From a virus: a stretch of 64,000 nucleotides of DNA. Location: the IMG/VR virus record IMGVR_UViG_3300002307_000034, positions 1-64,000 of that record; one strand, written 5' to 3'. Of the stretch, positions 8,006 through 14,250 are shown one piece after another; within the stretch, counting starts at the first letter, position 1; every line of letters begins with the position of its first letter. A program made the position numbers and the translations under genes. The notes below the pieces were generated by a model. The model was not told where the DNA came from and did no database searches. It saw only the letters and a list, made by a program, of their open reading frames with translations.

Positions 8006-8896
8006 TTACTTCAAAGCATTTACTAAATTAATACCGATTACATTTTGTTTAACCATAATATTTGTATATAAAGAACCGGTTAATTTAATTGTATTGTAGA
8101 TTTCTTTATAAGACAAGTTTTTAGCATTTGCAATTTTTAGCCATCCCGCTCCAAATACACCTACAGATAATGATGTTCCTGAATCTATTTTTGTTTTATT
8201 ATCGTTAATTGCAACTATCATATTTCCATTTGCAGCAAAATCTACTCGAGGTGAGTAATCTGCATACAAAGCAAGTCTTCCCTTGTCATCAATTGAGCTG
8301 ATTGCAATTGAATTTGTTAAACATGCTGGGGAAGAAATATTTTTATAATTAAAATCATTACCTGTTGAAAAAATTGATGGAATTCCAATTGAATAAAGAT
8401 TATTGATAGCATTTTGTTGAGTTGCATCTGTATAGCATGATGTAGCATTAAATAATGATAGAGGAGAAACTACAGCTCCAATATTATATTTAGAAGCATT
8501 AGAATATGCCCAGTTCAAAGCTTGTCCCAAAAGATTACTGTTACAATTAATAAAACCATTTGCACCAATAAGTGATGCACAACGAATTTCAATAATTTTT
8601 ACATTTGGATCAGTTTGTATTGCTGATGAAGCAACTTCTGTTCCATGAATCCATGCTGGAAGTATTGCCATTGATGCATTAATACTTGCTGATCCCGTTC
8701 CTTCCATAAATGTTTTACCATTTGGGCAAGAATTATATCCAGCAAAACATACTTCATAAATAATATTATTTTTAATACTATTGTTAGTCATATCTACACC
8801 TGTATCAATGATAACCATTGTTTTAGGAGTTGCTGCATATGATGTGACAGGATAAAGTGATAACAAAGAAACTGCAATAACGATCAGCTTTTTCAT
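8006..8896 (-). CDS. secreted S8 (subtilisin-like) serine peptidase
   Basis: signal peptide; VIIDTG, HGT and SGTS catalytic triad motifs. Confidence 0.85.
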   Translation of the reverse strand: MKKLIVIAVSLLSLYPVTSYAATPKTMVIIDTGVDMTNNSIKNNIIYEVCFAGYNSCPNGKTFMEGTGSASINASMAILPAWIHGTEVASSAIQTDPNVKIIEIRCASLIGANGFINCNSNLLGQALNWAYSNASKYNIGAVVSPLSLFNATSCYTDATQQNAINNLYSIGIPSIFSTGNDFNYKNISSPACLTNSIAISSIDDKGRLALYADYSPRVDFAANGNMIVAINDNKTKIDSGTSLSVGVFGAGWLKIANAKNLSYKEIYNTIKLTGSLYTNIMVKQNVIGINLVNALK

Positions 8897-8927
8897 TTTA
8901 TTCTTTCTGTTAGTAGTTATTTGATTG

Positions 8928-8999
8928 TGCCCCTAGAAGGATTCGAACCTCCGACCAAACGGGTAGAAACCGTTGACTCTTCCTCTGAGTTATAGAGGC
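8928..8999 (-). tRNA. tRNA-Arg(UCU)
   Basis: cloverleaf; anticodon arm AACGG-TTTCTAC-CCGTT; GGTTCGAATCC T-arm. Confidence 0.9.
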
Positions 9000-9007
9000 A
9001 TGAGTAT

Positions 9008-9037
9008 ATTATACTGTTTTTATATTTGTGATGTCAA
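9008..9037 (-). promoter_or_regulatory. promoter for tRNA-Arg
   Basis: TTGACA-18 nt-TATAAT, 8 nt upstream of the tRNA. Confidence 0.8.
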
Positions 9038-9040
9038 GGA

Positions 9041-9484
9041 TTAAATTATAGATGATTTAATTGTTGAAGTTAATTGCCAATCCCATTTTTTATGCATGGA
9101 ATGTCTAATTTCAATATCGCTTGCAATACCAATTTCTTTTACTGCTTCTGCTGCTTCATGCACAGCTAACAAATCATTAATTACAGCTTCATTTGAAACC
9201 AAAAAGCTTTCAATCTGATCTTTTGGATTTGCTCCCGCATAAACTTGACCAATTGTTCTATTTGTTACAAAATCAGTTAATTGAAATGGAGCGGTTTGCC
9301 CAAGTTTTCTAATCATCTCAGAAATATCATCAATAGAATCATATACATCTTCATAAATTTCTAAAAATTTGGCATGCATTTCAGGAAATAGCATTCCCTC
9401 TACATTCCAATGATATCCGTGAATTTGAAAATAAGCAGTAACTACGTCTGCTTGTAAAATTTTAAGTCTTTGTACTAAATCCAT
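9041..9484 (-). CDS. dps: Dps-family ferritin-like protein
   Basis: HGYHWNVEG..F.EMH..F.E.Y......D.ISE ferroxidase motifs; H.K..W near the C-terminus. Confidence 0.9.
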   Translation of the reverse strand: MDLVQRLKILQADVVTAYFQIHGYHWNVEGMLFPEMHAKFLEIYEDVYDSIDDISEMIRKLGQTAPFQLTDFVTNRTIGQVYAGANPKDQIESFLVSNEAVINDLLAVHEAAEAVKEIGIASDIEIRHSMHKKWDWQLTSTIKSSII

Positions 9485-9527
9485 TGTAACTCCTTAGAAA
9501 GCTGATCTGCTATTTACTATTATACCA

Positions 9528-9752
9528 TTAATTGCTTGATTGGGATGGCTTTTCATTAATATAATGACGTTCATCCACAATTTCATATGCTTGACTATTT
9601 AATTTGTTTTGATTTTTATTATAATGGTGACCACAAAACATTAATTCGCCCGTCAATAATTTAACAGAAACAAAAGCCTGTGCTTGACATGAATCACAGC
9701 GATCTTGTAATGTTAAAATACGTTCTGTTGTTTTTTCTTGTTCAAGTATCAT
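9528..9752 (-). CDS. small actinobacterial-type zinc-binding protein
   Basis: LT..DRCDSC.AQA.V...GEL.FCGHH. Confidence 0.7.
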   Translation of the reverse strand: MILEQEKTTERILTLQDRCDSCQAQAFVSVKLLTGELMFCGHHYNKNQNKLNSQAYEIVDERHYINEKPSQSSN

Positions 9753-9791
9753 ACCTTAAGTATATCCCTTTATGTTAGTAGTTACAAGTTG

Positions 9792-9864
9792 TGTCCCCAG
9801 CAGGTCTCGATCCTGCGACCCGCAGATTAAAAGTCTGCTGCTCTACCAACTGAGCTATAGGGAC
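9792..9864 (-). tRNA. tRNA-Lys(UUU)
   Basis: cloverleaf; GCAGA-CTTTTAA-TCTGC. Confidence 0.92.
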
Positions 9865-9865
9865 A

Positions 9866-9996
9866 TGTCAGATCAGTTTATCTTTTACCACACTGTAAGG
9901 TCTATAACCGAGTGTTCTGACAACACCGTGTAGGTTGCTCTAGAAACCCCTACATATTAGCGTAAAGCCTAAACCATTGAAGGCCTATACTAATGT
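9866..9996 (-). ncRNA. candidate structured RNA 'C' between tRNA-Leu and tRNA-Lys
   Basis: three consecutive stem-loops (ATTAG/CTAAT, TGTAGG/CCTACA, TGTCAGA/TCTGACA) with nested helices; no credible ORF. Confidence 0.45.
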
Positions 9997-10003
9997 TACT
10001 ATG

Positions 10004-10076
10004 TGCCCCAAGTTGGATTCGAACCAACGCTGTATGGATTTTAAGTCCACTATCTCTACCACTGGATTACTGGGGC
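10004..10076 (-). tRNA. tRNA-Leu(UAA), short variable arm
   Basis: GTGGA-CTTAAAA-TCCAT; 5-nt variable loop; 73 nt. Confidence 0.9.
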
Positions 10077-10118
10077 CAGTACACGCCTGTTTTTTCTATA
10101 TGTATATATACAAAATTT

Positions 10119-10850
10119 TTAGATTTGCTTATAATCATTAGTTCCTCTATATACATTAAAAAATTCTTTTGTAAAAATTGGAATTTTATGCAACATGCCA
10201 ACTAGTTGCCAATAATTTTCATATACTTTTATTTGTGTTTCATATGCTTTTAAAGCATTAATTCTTTTATTTATTACTTCTGAAAAATCTATTTCTAAAT
10301 CTATTTTTTTATAAGCACTAACCCAAAATGGATCATTTTCCCATACAGGATTATTTTTTTGTTCAATAACCGTAAACCAAATATTGGGAATTTTATATAT
10401 AGAGTCTAAAATGTCTAACGAGGACATTGTTGCATTGTGAACAGTTATATGGTCTGGATGTCCGCTCCAACCATTTTGATCATATGTTATTAATAAATCT
10501 GGCTTAATTGATACTAAAATATCGGACAATTGTTTGGATAAAACTTCAATGCCTACAAATTTTAAAGATCCTTTAATTGGTACCCTGTTTGGAACCGTGT
10601 CATCATATGGACCAATAAATATATGTTTTGACACGCCCAAAGCTTCCATTGCTTTTGAATGTTCTTTTAATAATTTATTTTTAAATTCAATAGTACCAGC
10701 TGGGTAATCATCTAAATAACTATTTCCACTCATGCCATTAGAAAAATTTATAACAGTAACATCATGACCAAGATTTACAAATTTTGCAATAGTCCCGCCA
10801 GTTGTTATTGTTTCGTCATCTGGATGACAATGTACAAATACTACTTTCAT
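10119..10850 (-). CDS. PIG-L/LmbE-family deacetylase (MshB/Mca-like)
   Basis: VFVHCHPDDETITTGGTIA and TYD..G..GHPDH motifs. Confidence 0.85.
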   Translation of the reverse strand: MKVVFVHCHPDDETITTGGTIAKFVNLGHDVTVINFSNGMSGNSYLDDYPAGTIEFKNKLLKEHSKAMEALGVSKHIFIGPYDDTVPNRVPIKGSLKFVGIEVLSKQLSDILVSIKPDLLITYDQNGWSGHPDHITVHNATMSSLDILDSIYKIPNIWFTVIEQKNNPVWENDPFWVSAYKKIDLEIDFSEVINKRINALKAYETQIKVYENYWQLVGMLHKIPIFTKEFFNVYRGTNDYKQI

Positions 10851-10866
10851 TTTTCTCCTTAGTTTG

Positions 10867-10937
10867 CTCCCTGACCTGGATTCGAACCAAGATACCCGCC
10901 TCCAAAGGGCGGTGTCCTACCGTTAGACGATCTGGGA
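10867..10937 (-). tRNA. tRNA-Gln(UUG)
   Basis: CCGCC-CTTTGGA-GGCGG; one acceptor-stem mismatch. Confidence 0.88.
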
Positions 10938-10944
10938 ATGTAAG

Positions 10945-11018
10945 CGATCCGTATCGGACTTGAACCGACGGCCTTTGCCGTGACAGGGCAACGCTCTAAC
11001 CAACTGAGCTAACGGACC
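10945..11018 (-). tRNA. tRNA-Asp(GUC)
   Basis: TTGCC-CTGTCAC-GGCAA. Confidence 0.92.
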
Positions 11019-11019
11019 A

Positions 11020-11096
11020 TGGTGGAACAGGTAGGACTTGAACCTACGATTACCGAATTATGAGTTCGGGGCTTTGACCAACTAAGCTACTGTTCC
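11020..11096 (-). tRNA. tRNA with CAU anticodon (Ile2-like or elongator Met), CCA encoded
   Basis: CCGAA-CTCATAA-TTCGG; G1-C72 paired and no three G-C pairs in the anticodon stem, so not initiator. Confidence 0.88.
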
Positions 11097-11097
11097 G

Positions 11098-11172
11098 TAC
11101 TCCAAGAAGGACTTGAACCTTCAGCCTTCAGTATATAAGACTGATGCTCTCACCAAGTTGAGCTATTGGAGC
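11098..11172 (-). tRNA. tRNA-Ile(UAU)
   Basis: TCAGT-CTTATAT-ACTGA; full cloverleaf; A73 discriminator. Confidence 0.85.
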
Positions 11173-11174
11173 AA

Positions 11175-11338
11175 GTGCTAGCCATGGATTTAGGATTCAA
11201 ACCTTAAACCTCCCGCTAGCTGTTGTACCTAGTTCTCGCTTTATCCTATTATCCCTGGGTCTGAACACTTTCATAATAGTGCTGGAACATTGTCGGATTC
11301 GGTACAACTATCTCCATATAAGTTGTTCAGACTTATAT
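11175..11338 (-). ncRNA. candidate structured RNA 'B' (pseudoknot plus tRNA-like 3' minihelix)
   Basis: 8-bp hairpin whose loop CUGAACA is complementary to a downstream UGUUCAG; GUUGUACC/GGUACAAC helix; GCUAGC-closed arm with GG-UUUGAAU-CC loop. Confidence 0.6.
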
Positions 11339-11344
11339 TTTGAG

Positions 11345-11417
11345 CTGGGATGACAGGGATCGAACCTGTGACATTTCGATTAACAGTCGAACGCTCTGCC
11401 AGCTGAGCTACATCCCA
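11345..11417 (-). tRNA. tRNA-Asn(GUU)
   Basis: TTCGA-CTGTTAA-TCGAA. Confidence 0.92.
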
Positions 11418-11422
11418 AAAAG

Positions 11423-11540
11423 GTACGACAAGCAATTCCATCTGCACAGGCGTTGAGGTCTATTGCACCACAAACGCTTTAGCCGAGTATGTTTATATGT
11501 AACTATAACATCATCCTAAGATTAGTGTTGCTTGCCGTAC
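11423..11540 (-). ncRNA. candidate structured RNA 'A' (~118 nt, multi-way junction)
   Basis: 13-bp closing stem GUACGGCAAGCAA/UUGCUUGUCGUAC starting at the predicted TSS; two internal arms; followed by a short U run. Confidence 0.6.
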
Positions 11541-11546
11541 TGTATT

Positions 11547-11576
11547 AGTATATCAGGCGGTTATTTACAATGTCAA
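11547..11576 (-). promoter_or_regulatory. promoter of the ncRNA/tRNA array
   Basis: TTGACA-18 nt-TATACT. Confidence 0.8.
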
Positions 11577-11999
11577 TTACTTGATCTTGATTGTTTTTGG
11601 CTTTTTATCCTCTGGAACAATTCTTTCAATTGTTACAGCAAGCATACCATTTTCAAATTCAGCACCAGTAACTTCCATATATTCACCTAGTGCAAATGAA
11701 CGAGTAAAAGAACGAGTAGCGATTCCTTTATGTTTAAAATCTGCTTCTTGTTTTTCTTTTTCACCCTTTACAATTAAATTTTTATTATCTACTGATACTG
11801 TAAGGTCGGATCTATTAAATCCCGCCAAGGCAATTTCAACAAGATATGTATCTTCATCTTGTTTAATTACATTGTATGGTGGATAATTATCCTGTTGTGA
11901 TGATTGGCTCCATGTTGTAATATTAGGTTGAAAACCAATAAAAAATGGGTCATTTAGAAGTGAATTCCAAAGCCCATTGTATGTGTATGTTGTATTCAT
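11577..11999 (-). CDS. small heat-shock protein (Hsp20/IbpA family)
   Basis: YPPYNV...EIALAGF...H.GIA.RSF.RSF.L...A.FENG.L; start moved to the ATG at 11999, behind AAGGAG. Confidence 0.93.
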   Translation of the reverse strand: MNTTYTYNGLWNSLLNDPFFIGFQPNITTWSQSSQQDNYPPYNVIKQDEDTYLVEIALAGFNRSDLTVSVDNKNLIVKGEKEKQEADFKHKGIATRSFTRSFALGEYMEVTGAEFENGMLAVTIERIVPEDKKPKTIKIK

Positions 12000-12056
12000 A
12001 CTATTCTCCTTTTCTTTAAGCAAGTTAGTTTAATTTAGATCCCCGAAGGCAATCTT
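12000..12056 (-). promoter_or_regulatory. ROSE-like RNA thermometer candidate in the hsp20 5' UTR
   Basis: 5' hairpin with UUCG loop, then CUUGCUU pairing with SD AAGGAG with a bulged G. Confidence 0.55.
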
Positions 12057-12078
12057 TATATATTATATCACAAATTGG

Positions 12079-13269
12079 TTAGTCTGTCCAGCACCATACA
12101 TTAATATCTGAATAACCAGCATCAATTATTTTCTTTTTAAGATCTTCATATATATTCCATGAAAATATAACTATGTCTGTAGGATTACATTCAAGCATTT
12201 TTTCTAAACTTACAACAGGTATTTGTGCATCAGGAATGTACCTGCCCTGTTTTTCAAAAGAATCATCTGCTATATATTTTATATCATTAAAATTTAATTT
12301 TGAAAAATTAATAACAGTTGATGCTTTGCCAGAGGCTGCGTATCCACAAATAATTTTTCCTTCATTATTAAGATTTTTAATTTTGTTATAAAAATTTGTT
12401 ATTTTATGATTAATTCGATCACTAAATTCATTCCATTTAGATTCACTTAACAAGCCACCATTTATTTCTTCATTAATTGTTTTTTCTACGCTTGAAAGCC
12501 TATTCTTTGTCCTAGAAATTAAATATCTATTACTTCCTCCATGCATTTGATATTCTTTAACATCAAATACATGCATTCCAAATTTACTTACAAGTTTAGA
12601 TACTGCATTTGTTGAAAGATATGAATAATGTTCATGATAAATGTTATCAAAATGATCATCATTTAAAATATGCATTATTGTTGGATTTTCAATACTTACA
12701 ATTGTTTCATCATTAGAAAGAATTGAAATTCCATTCATAAAATCTTGAATATTTGGCACATGAGCAAAAACATTTTTTGCAACTATAAGTTTAGGATAGC
12801 CTTTAATTCTTAAAATTTCTTTAGCAAGTTCTGATCCAAAAAAATCATTTATAGTAGGAATACCATCGCATATTGCATACATTGATATATTTTTGGCGGG
12901 ATCAACTCCCAAAACATCTATATTTTCTTTTTGAAACATTTTTAAAAGATAACCATCGTTACTTGCTAATTCTAAAACCCAATCTTTTTCTCCAAAACTT
13001 ATTTTAGATAAACATTCATTTACAAATTCTTTAGAATGTTTTAAAAATGTTTCACTGTATGATGTTCTAAACCCGTAAAAACTAAATAATCTAGAGGGAT
13101 CTAGGTCCAATGAAATTTGACCTAACCCGCAATCTGAGCAAACCATCATTTTTGTTTCAAATGTTTCAGCTTTGTGATTTTTATCTTTAGATAATTCATT
13201 AACAATTGGTAAAGAACCTAAATCAATGCCAGTAAATTGCTTTTGACTGTTACACGCACGACATGCCAT
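12079..13269 (-). CDS. NDP-hexose C-methyltransferase (class I SAM-dependent, Zn-binding N-terminus)
   Basis: CRAC...CSDC, VLELASNDG, NVFAHVP, IYHEH.SY, HGGS.R, GYAASGKA; likely start MACRAC. Confidence 0.88.
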   Translation of the reverse strand: MACRACNSQKQFTGIDLGSLPIVNELSKDKNHKAETFETKMMVCSDCGLGQISLDLDPSRLFSFYGFRTSYSETFLKHSKEFVNECLSKISFGEKDWVLELASNDGYLLKMFQKENIDVLGVDPAKNISMYAICDGIPTINDFFGSELAKEILRIKGYPKLIVAKNVFAHVPNIQDFMNGISILSNDETIVSIENPTIMHILNDDHFDNIYHEHYSYLSTNAVSKLVSKFGMHVFDVKEYQMHGGSNRYLISRTKNRLSSVEKTINEEINGGLLSESKWNEFSDRINHKITNFYNKIKNLNNEGKIICGYAASGKASTVINFSKLNFNDIKYIADDSFEKQGRYIPDAQIPVVSLEKMLECNPTDIVIFSWNIYEDLKKKIIDAGYSDINVWCWTD

Positions 13270-13297
13270 AAATATCTCTTTTCTTGTATAGATATAC

Positions 13298-13321
13298 AAT
13301 TATATCATAAATGATATAATT
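13298..13321. promoter_or_regulatory. palindromic back-to-back TGATATAAT boxes (divergent promoter)
   Basis: aattatatcat-aa-atgatataatt between the divergent genes. Confidence 0.65.
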
Positions 13322-13335
13322 ATTTTAGAGGATTT

Positions 13336-14250
13336 ATGAGAGATTACGATTATAATTATGAATTTAATTCATTTAATAAAAAAACAGAGCTTTTGAGTAA
13401 TTTGCCAATTTATGAAATATTTGATTTAAAATTAAATAAACATATTACAAATAAAACTGTTGTCCTTGATGAATTATGTTTTCCTATATCCATGTCAGTA
13501 AATTTTGCACATGCTTTATTTGATGGAATAGGAGCGTATTATCAATTAAAAAAAATATATCCTGATCTTATACCTATTTTTATAGATGAAACTAGAAAAC
13601 CAGGTTTAATTGAATATTTCAGTTTGCCTTTAAAAGAATTTGCTGAACAAAATAACTTTAAAATAATAAATTTAAACAAAAACAATTATATATTTAAAAA
13701 AGTTATCATTCATAATTATTACTTTTCAACTATTCCAATTTTAAATTTTAAAGATGAATTAATCCAAAATAATGATGATTTAAGACAAGTTAAATTTTAT
13801 CAAAATTCTATAAATGAAATTTTAAATAATATTAAATTTGAAAATAAACTTTCTAATAAAAAAATATATGTATCAAGAAGATTAGCTAATAAAGATAGGA
13901 AATATCATAAAAATCAAGCTTTTGCAAAACAATATACCTATGATAAAAAATATGATATAGAATTTGAAAATTTTTTTGAATCAAAAGGTTTTGAAATTAT
14001 AGATCTTGAAGGATATAATTTGTCTGAACAAATAAATTTATTCTCACAATGCAATGCTTTTGCTACCATTGAAGGCACTGCATTAATAAATAGCATTTGG
14101 ATGCCAAATAATTCTAAAATTTTATCAATTAAAATGTATGAAACTTATTTTCCATGGGATCATATAATAAATCAAAATGATAAAAAATATATAAAAACAT
14201 GCAATATTGAAAATTTAAATTTTTATCAAGATTTAAATAATTTTTTTTAA
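13336..14250 (+). CDS. glycosyltransferase family 61 (DUF563)
   Basis: NFAHALFD, KIYVSRR, GFEIIDLE...LSEQINLF, EGTALIN motifs; AGAGG RBS. Confidence 0.8.
   Translation: MRDYDYNYEFNSFNKKTELLSNLPIYEIFDLKLNKHITNKTVVLDELCFPISMSVNFAHALFDGIGAYYQLKKIYPDLIPIFIDETRKPGLIEYFSLPLKEFAEQNNFKIINLNKNNYIFKKVIIHNYYFSTIPILNFKDELIQNNDDLRQVKFYQNSINEILNNIKFENKLSNKKIYVSRRLANKDRKYHKNQAFAKQYTYDKKYDIEFENFFESKGFEIIDLEGYNLSEQINLFSQCNAFATIEGTALINSIWMPNNSKILSIKMYETYFPWDHIINQNDKKYIKTCNIENLNFYQDLNNFF

Follow-up and report, generated by a model that had tools for sequence, protein, structure and literature searches.

What do the 171 nt between two neighbouring tRNA genes of a phage tRNA array encode? Since the work on T4, it has been clear that phage tRNA clusters contain extra small stable RNAs whose purpose is still a puzzle, and manA, GOLLD and ROOL are further structured RNAs of this kind. 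In the window (the whole stretch of 64,000 nt that was analysed, part of a viral record of 104,950 bases that is ~97% complete), an initial annotation made from the letters alone had placed a non-coding RNA candidate in such a position, with a loop pseudoknot, a tRNA-mimic 3' end and a tRNA on either side. The element belongs to a conserved family of structured RNAs, absent from Rfam 15, and our survey of the literature found no paper describing this kissing-loop family.

The locus and its neighbours

The element takes up the entire gap from tRNA-Asn to tRNA-Ile(UAU) on the minus strand (11173-11343), with zero spare bases, and both of the flanking tRNAs noted in the initial annotation are in place:

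11344-11417, minus strand: tRNA-Asn(GTT), the upstream neighbour, whose 3' end abuts the element (ARAGORN; Rfam tRNA, 70.8 bits)
11097-11172, minus strand: tRNA-Ile(TAT), the downstream neighbour (ARAGORN; Rfam tRNA, 71.2 bits)
11547-11576, minus strand: promoter-like site TTGACA-18-TATACT with TG before the -10 (consensus scan, 11/12 matches)

The strong promoter-like site of the array precedes tRNA-Asn by 130 bases, and nothing resembling a terminator was detected from this site (11547-11576) down to 8700, hence none inside the array; from this arrangement, we infer that the element is co-transcribed with the array. The large terminase (24044-24892, minus strand) is 73% identical to those of Stanwilliamsviridae, which are Streptomyces phages, and the host-like accessory genes around the array (8006-14250) encode Hsp20, a PIG-L/MshB-type deacetylase, Dps/ferritin, a subtilase, a C-methyltransferase and a GT61 glycosyltransferase. 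Given the Stanwilliamsviridae-like terminase and the neighbouring genes for the PIG-L/MshB-type deacetylase, Dps and Hsp20, the source is probably a freshwater actinobacterial phage.

The array holds further non-tRNA stretches. The ~130 nt between the array promoter and tRNA-Asn (11418-11546, minus strand), listed earlier as candidate 'A', form a second conserved non-tRNA array unit, with 86% identity over 164 nt in the closest relative (L002:4444-4603) and partial conservation in L003. The spacer between tRNA-Leu and tRNA-Lys (9866-9967, minus strand; candidate 'C') is conserved at the nucleotide level in L084:4293-4394 and L087:3792-3893 (tblastx), where the counterpart sits in a 163-nt gap between tRNA-Met and tRNA-Gln. 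This spacer constitutes a third family of tRNA-slot RNA.

The RNA family and its conserved fold

The search for homologues combined three distinct DNA patterns with a covariance model. The pattern of both complementary loops retrieved 7 true homologues from viral contigs and, from metagenome contigs, two near-identical copies and one divergent copy. The covariance model R1, built from the first 7 sequences, yielded 3 more copies over 50 related viral records, and the element was present in only 3 of these 50. A pattern that fixed only the region of the downstream loop (L4) recovered 48 members, and one that fixed neither loop recovered 19 further members. Once duplicates were removed, the alignment A6, fitted to the model, comprised 58 distinct sequences, all from uncultured phage contigs. 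The E-values of our own covariance models are rough; in bit scores, the window copy reaches 171.8 against R1, across the full model, and the 149-nt copies located between tRNA-Glu and tRNA-Thr (L203, L212, L214, L215 and L236) reach 101.8 with the window-clade model and have every helix and the loop-loop kiss in common with it. Across the family, the copies measure from 149 to 182 nt.

A scan of one genome per prokaryotic species produced 7 chance matches and a single true copy, whose contig, part of a MAG, is phage-like. This sole copy among the species-representative prokaryote genomes (L266:1590-1738, minus strand) lies between tRNA-Met and tRNA-Gly on a 10.7-kb contig from a MAG labelled Methylococcus; most likely, it is a phage contig that was binned with the MAG. 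The pattern matches L088, L091-L094, L098 and L259-L265, which had no support from BLAST, from flanking sequence or the tRNA scan, or from the covariance model, were discarded as chance. No match was obtained by blastn of a type-B copy against 50,697 GenBank phage records or with model R2 in three Stanwilliamsviridae Streptomyces phages, and no copy of the element was found in 80 loci around Hsp20 homologues.

The fold of the family, in window coordinates, consists of the following parts:

11173-11343, minus strand: whole element, 171 nt (R1, 171.8 bits; MFE -43.5 kcal/mol, z = -3.15)
11311-11343, minus strand: 5' domain (P0/P1)
11343-11342 with 11312-11311, minus strand: P0, U-C paired with the G-A of the conserved AGAU linker (RNAalifold, independent prediction)
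11338-11331 with 11323-11316, minus strand: P1, 8 bp (6/8 pairs compensated, 99.3% of cells paired)
11330-11324, minus strand: L1, 7-nt loop CUGAACA, invariant except for C to U at one position
11222-11308, minus strand: central domain, closed by P2
11308-11301 with 11229-11222, minus strand: P2, 8 bp (8/8 pairs compensated)
11300-11289, minus strand: J2/3, conserved 12-nt strand of the form GAA..UAC..U
11288-11285 with 11235-11232, minus strand: P3, 4-5 bp in the family (4/4 pairs compensated)
11278-11273 with 11252-11247, minus strand: P4, lineage-specific stem that covaries among 'type A' members
11258-11269, minus strand: P4c mini-hairpin, with a 3-bp stem 11269-11267 with 11260-11258 (3/3 pairs compensated)
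11266-11261, minus strand: L4, 6-nt loop GUUCAG of P4c
11177-11220, minus strand: P5, 3' hairpin, with a 6-bp base 11220-11215 with 11182-11177 (5/6 pairs compensated, 100% paired)
11214-11183, minus strand: distal part of P5, variable, with the loop UUUGAAU in the window copy
11173-11176, minus strand: tail A-CUU, 4 nt, from P5 to the first base of tRNA-Ile

The helices that had been read from the single sequence are present, namely the 8-bp hairpin AUAUAAGU-CUGAACA-ACUUAUAU (11338-11316), the closing helix GUUGUACC/GGUACAAC of the central domain (11308-11301 with 11229-11222) and the final arm GCUAGC...GCUAGC-A-C (11220-11215 with 11182-11177), which is preceded by a single linker base A. 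The proposed inner pairing GCACU/AGUGU has to be abandoned: it is not conserved and clashes with the covarying P4c.

The signals in the single sequence are modest. The fold of the window copy beats shuffles at z = -3.15, with 1 of 200 shuffles equally good, and a 9-nt complement within 171 nt, for which ~0.06 occurrences are expected by chance (our own estimate), is weakly unusual by itself. The decisive evidence is the comparative alignment. On A6, the six helices P0, P1, P2, P3, P4c and P5 have 98.9% of their cells paired, and 27/35 pairs show compensatory changes; none of 500 shuffles reaches any of five pairing measures, and when partners are slid by 1-3 columns, pairing drops to 26-38%. 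The alignment was fitted by the model and is thus biased toward its structure, a bias that is mitigated by the slid controls and by an independent RNAalifold run on A6 which, with no structure supplied, recovered the same helices and added P0. This last helix is compensated in three sequences (L084, L193 and L097), its pair U1:A33 being UA in 54 members, AU in 2, GC in 1 and an unpaired U/C in one. A 2-bp 'P4b' and P3b were rejected as general helices, at 32-42% paired, and P4c was put instead; the closing pair of P4c is U:A in 19 sequences, C:G in 22 and G:C in 13. The strong covariation over 58 sequences bears out the central claim of the initial annotation, that this is a genuine non-coding RNA.

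This covariation also bears on the reading that the gap is a spacer without function, left for example by the decay of two tRNA genes, or else a short ORF that encodes a protein. The length of the element, about that of two tRNAs, and the ORFs of 36 and 58 aa that overlap it in a mechanical ORF list would suit such an origin, but compensatory changes in six helices over 58 copies from divergent phages are incompatible with neutral decay and thus exclude a neutral spacer or decayed tRNAs, and no residual tRNA signal is present at E<=10. Moreover, the copies differ in length within stems and loops by numbers that are not multiples of three, contrary to expectation for a coding ORF. We regard this reading as hardly credible.

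Within the conserved frame, members vary in two places. Members that lack P4 carry in that place a different, almost invariant 40-nt insert, and the distal part of P5, for which there are several unrelated modules, can be as short as a 12-nt loop or as long as ~45 nt. The window copy combines a long P5 with a 'type A' core and covarying P4; the 149-nt copies between tRNA-Glu and tRNA-Thr combine a minimal P5 (6 bp and a 12-nt loop) with a 'type B' core. The signature of the family, all of which the window copy carries, is P0/P1 with the loop CUGAAYA, a domain closed by P2, P4c with a GRUUCAG-type complement, and P5 followed by A and 3 nt. In type-B members (e.g. L082), the linker motif GGAGAUU that follows P1 (11310-11315 in the window) is repeated right after the P4c hairpin (GGAGAUUGCUCU).

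The 9-nt complement on which the proposed loop pseudoknot was based is present (11332-11324 versus 11267-11259), and the pairing is conserved and compensated; its form is nevertheless different, with only 6 Watson-Crick bp, between CUGAAC of L1 (11330-11325) and GUUCAG of L4 (11266-11261), the seventh base, A, unpaired and the extension into the stem not kept. All 58 sequences (100%) have this kiss paired. One of its pairs, next to the unpaired A, is C:G in 54 sequences, U:A in 3 from two clades and U:G in 1; the change from C:G to U:A is seen in L251 and, in the other clade, in L238 and L243, with sister sequences retaining C:G and L224 representing the U:G intermediate. The complementarity of L1 and L4 is partly independent of the search, one pattern having fixed only L4 and another neither loop. 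Furthermore, the bases that flank GUUCAG covary (U:A, C:G, G:C), so that the partner of L1 is itself a hairpin loop, which makes this a kissing interaction and not a pseudoknot of the H type. Run on just the first 7 sequences, RNAalifold had merged the kiss and P1 into one long helix; we rejected this helix, since pairing beyond the loop into P1 is not maintained (L179/L217, L203) and P1 itself covaries. On the strength of these substitutions, we consider the L1-L4 interaction to be a compensated kissing loop, and the covariation fits intramolecular and intermolecular pairing alike.

Pairing between molecules would make the element a self-assembling RNA that forms a symmetric dimer or a larger RNA-only assembly, as a miniature counterpart of ROOL and GOLLD. 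L1 and L4 are mutually complementary and not self-complementary, which suits head-to-tail or two-fold symmetric pairing, and tertiary or quaternary contacts would be expected to keep many unpaired bases invariant, as is seen here. There is also a precedent in ROOL, which is phage-encoded and 'often near tRNA islands', and in which a conserved kissing loop, taken on the evidence of covariation to be intramolecular, proved to be quaternary (PMC12286853). However, at ~165 nt the element is far below the size of known assembling RNAs, it has no Rfam match to ROOL, GOLLD, OLE or manA, and the spacing from L1 to L4 is 47-51 nt in five hand-counted members (the insert of L097 is longer) despite three architectures of the intervening domain. 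This near-constant spacing indicates that closure within one molecule fits at least as well, and we consider self-assembly through the kiss unlikely.

Known RNA families and tRNA likeness

The initial annotation had recognised no family in the element, and the database searches agree. With Rfam 15 (4227 models), only 8 tRNAs in the 64-kb window pass the gathering score; a search at E<=10 over 11100-11620 returned nothing inside 11173-11343, and at E<=1 there was nothing in five other members. The surroundings of the stand-alone copy in L193 gave no Rfam match either. Models of the known self-cleaving ribozymes (hammerhead, HDV-like, twister, hatchet and pistol) match neither the element nor the five members. 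A resemblance to the R element of group I introns (GAAGGUGU...GAC) was dropped, with no RF00028 match and no exon context.

The identities that had been suggested for the element, namely tRNA, tmRNA or Y-RNA-like, are not supported. For a tRNA or tRNA pseudogene, ARAGORN finds no gene in the gap, RF00005 gives nothing at E<=10, and the conserved fold is not a cloverleaf. ARAGORN reports no tmRNA, the 5' and 3' ends of the element are not mutually paired, and there is no G3:U70, pair 3 of P5 being C:G or U:A. The YrlA model (RF02553) has only sub-threshold matches, all of which fall on genuine tRNAs of the arrays and not on the element, and PF05731 (Ro60/TROVE) is absent from the 105-kb phage record, in a search in which positive controls were detected. 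According to PMC4201824, some phages encode YrlA, a small structured RNA with features of tRNA, near their tRNAs; the element differs in having no Ro-binding terminal stem and no T arm, and in the lack of a TROVE/Ro60 gene in the phage.

There is, nevertheless, some likeness to tRNA that could make the element a mimic or decoy, either with P5 and its unpaired A acting as a CCA-tailed or charged acceptor arm, or with the P1 loop (C-U-GAA-C-A), which resembles the anticodon loop of tRNA-Phe, baiting a tRNA-targeting host nuclease or enzyme. The element is located among tRNAs, and the base of P5 has an invariant first pair, G:C, with an unpaired A after it in almost every copy; in L1, a U occupies the place of U33 and GAA takes 34-36, and UUC is available in L4, although these are resemblances only. 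Part of the tRNA-mimic 3' end proposed initially thus holds across the family, namely the 6-bp P5 base with the unpaired A next to it; in our reading of A6, the tail starts with A, with two exceptions among the 58 members, and its remaining three bases vary. The T-loop-like UUUGAAU and the C, in contrast, are specific to the window copy. A search of viral contigs with a pattern of the 3' arm (AAGGTTTGAATCCTAAATCC) had no match, which first pointed to a lack of conservation in the T-loop-like arm. The fold contains no cloverleaf and no T arm, the top of P5 shrinks to a 12-nt loop, the tRNA model and ARAGORN are silent, and G3:U70 is missing. Moreover, the kiss engages the whole of the anticodon-like loop, a pyrimidine covarying with L4 stands at its 'position 37', and neither a CCA-adding enzyme nor RtcB is encoded by the phage, the lack of the former counting against a CCA-tailed mimic. 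A mimic or decoy is therefore very unlikely. Ribozyme, decoy and anti-defence roles, all raised in the initial annotation, have the standing of conjecture.

Placement among tRNAs and possible role

Across the family, 50 of 54 copies lie flush between two same-strand tRNAs. The identity of these tRNAs varies (Asp|Thr, Asn|Ile, Gly|Trp, Met|Leu, Glu|Thr and others), and the linkers at the element borders are fixed at 5 and 4 nt: the structured part begins at the first base after the upstream tRNA and stops 4 bases short of the next tRNA. In the closest relative, whose neighbouring Hsp20 is 79% identical, tRNA-Asn is followed after 3 nt by tRNA-Ile(TAT) and the element is absent, which identifies the element as an insertion or deletion cassette.

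Several copies depart from the common arrangement. In L201, the element is the first unit and is flush against tRNA-Asn; L235 has no upstream tRNA, with tRNA-Asn downstream after a 210-nt gap (L235:1761-1970); in L195, a gap of 159 nt (L195:1778-1936) separates the upstream tRNA-Asn from the element. The divergent L097 copy is followed by a sub-threshold tRNA (L097:1445-1527; RF00005, 26.1 bits versus a cut-off of 29), which has normal D and T arms and an over-long anticodon region and was missed by ARAGORN. A stand-alone copy, L193:10220-10383 (minus strand), lies in a ~380-nt noncoding gap between protein genes; no tRNA was found in this 12-kb locus, and no consensus promoter or terminator near the copy. 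P1 of this copy contains two mismatches but is lengthened by UAAC/GUUA. Given the stand-alone copy, tRNA-linked processing cannot be the sole route of production.

The element-bearing arrays also contain more inter-tRNA gaps of 150-215 nt that match neither R1/R2 nor the tRNA detectors (L082:1452-1639, 978-1132 and 691-904; L083:10696-10887; and the gaps in L195 and L235 mentioned above). These gaps are probably other RNA cassettes.

Taking the comparative evidence together, we favour, as the probable explanation, that the element is a cassette encoding a stable, ~165-nt non-coding RNA that resides in phage 'tRNA slots', is derived from the tRNA transcript and acts in trans. Counting against this explanation are the absence of genes for Ro60, a CCA-adding enzyme and RtcB from the phage, and the copy in L193 that stands apart from any tRNA. 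Under this model, the element would be transcribed with the tRNAs from the promoter at 11576-11547, cleavage by RNase P at the 5' end of tRNA-Ile would create its 3' end, and an RNase Z- or RNase E-type endonuclease, in releasing tRNA-Asn at the 3' side, would create the 5' end of the element. An endonuclease is invoked because, were that tRNA trimmed by exonucleases alone, the element would be destroyed at every round, an outcome difficult to reconcile with its conservation. A course of this kind is known or presumed for T4 rnaC and rnaD, and RNase P releases other phage RNAs, among them the C4 RNA of P1/P7 (PMC11143913). The kiss would lock the RNA in a compact, nuclease-resistant shape, and together with the paired termini would protect it. 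The released RNA would then act through its near-invariant unpaired core, comprising the GAARG and GGA flanks of P4c, J2/3 and AGAU, as a putative binding surface for a host or phage factor that most plausibly is part of the tRNA-handling or translation machinery.

The same borders could instead be those of a cis-acting processing module or self-cleaving ribozyme that punctuates the polycistronic transcript and has no role after release. Consistent with this, the element is flush with tRNAs on both sides, its linkers are fixed, its first two bases are drawn into P0 straight after the tRNA end, and the number of unpaired bases that are conserved would allow for a catalytic core. Yet most arrays of related phages, including that of the closest relative, mature the same tRNA pairs without the element, the identity of the neighbours is not conserved, and the L193 copy stands without any tRNA. 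A ribozyme is further disfavoured in that no known ribozyme family matches, and a small self-cleaving ribozyme would leave on the tRNA a 2',3'-cyclic phosphate, which blocks CCA addition. Together, these observations make a role confined to processing decidedly unlikely. Somewhat unlikely, too, is that the element is a small RNA-only machine, be it a self-assembling particle held by intermolecular L1-L4 pairing or a new ribozyme or ligand-binding fold with the unpaired core as its active site. If it does assemble, the particle would resemble, on a smaller scale, the cages of ROOL and GOLLD, which phages also keep near tRNAs.

A stable trans-acting RNA from a tRNA slot, as we favour here, has its closest counterparts in T4, where rnaC (species 1, 139 nt) and rnaD (species 2, 119 nt) both lie inside the tRNA cluster; these RNAs are expressed and 'of yet unknown functions' (PMC9697503). 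Like them, the element is a non-tRNA structured RNA in the 120-170 nt range on the tRNA strand of a phage tRNA cluster, the T4 pair lying a few bases from a tRNA. There is, however, no sequence or model similarity, and R2 finds nothing in the T4 genome (E<=1). In rnaC, the 5' and 3' ends are paired and a canonical T arm (GGGUUCGAAUCCC) is present, whereas the element family has neither, its hallmark being the L1-L4 kiss. With different folds and no R2 match, homology to rnaC/rnaD was rejected, only location and kind being in common; by analogy, the element is most likely a counterpart in kind of the T4 species 1 and 2 RNAs.

ROOL and GOLLD are, similarly, phage-encoded structured RNAs near tRNA islands with conserved kissing loops, and the element resembles these RNAs and manA in being phage-borne, within or next to tRNA arrays, with kissing loops and without a known protein partner (PMC12286853). 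According to work cited in PMC12286853, GOLLD occurs in tRNA arrays of Mycobacterium, which belongs to the same phylum as the probable hosts of the phages studied here. The differences are that ROOL, GOLLD and manA are three to five times larger and that the element has no Rfam match to them. RNAs of the ROOL/GOLLD type form homo-oligomers through intermolecular kissing loops, a property that is hypothetical for the element.

The family turns the old T4 puzzle into a defined comparative model, with 58 copies, a structure resolved nearly to the base pair, a compensated kiss and exact borders. Combined with natural presence/absence variants among close relatives, this model makes the processing, oligomer state, partners and fitness effects of such an RNA addressable. 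It also follows that gaps in phage tRNA arrays deserve annotation as RNA genes, not as spacers.
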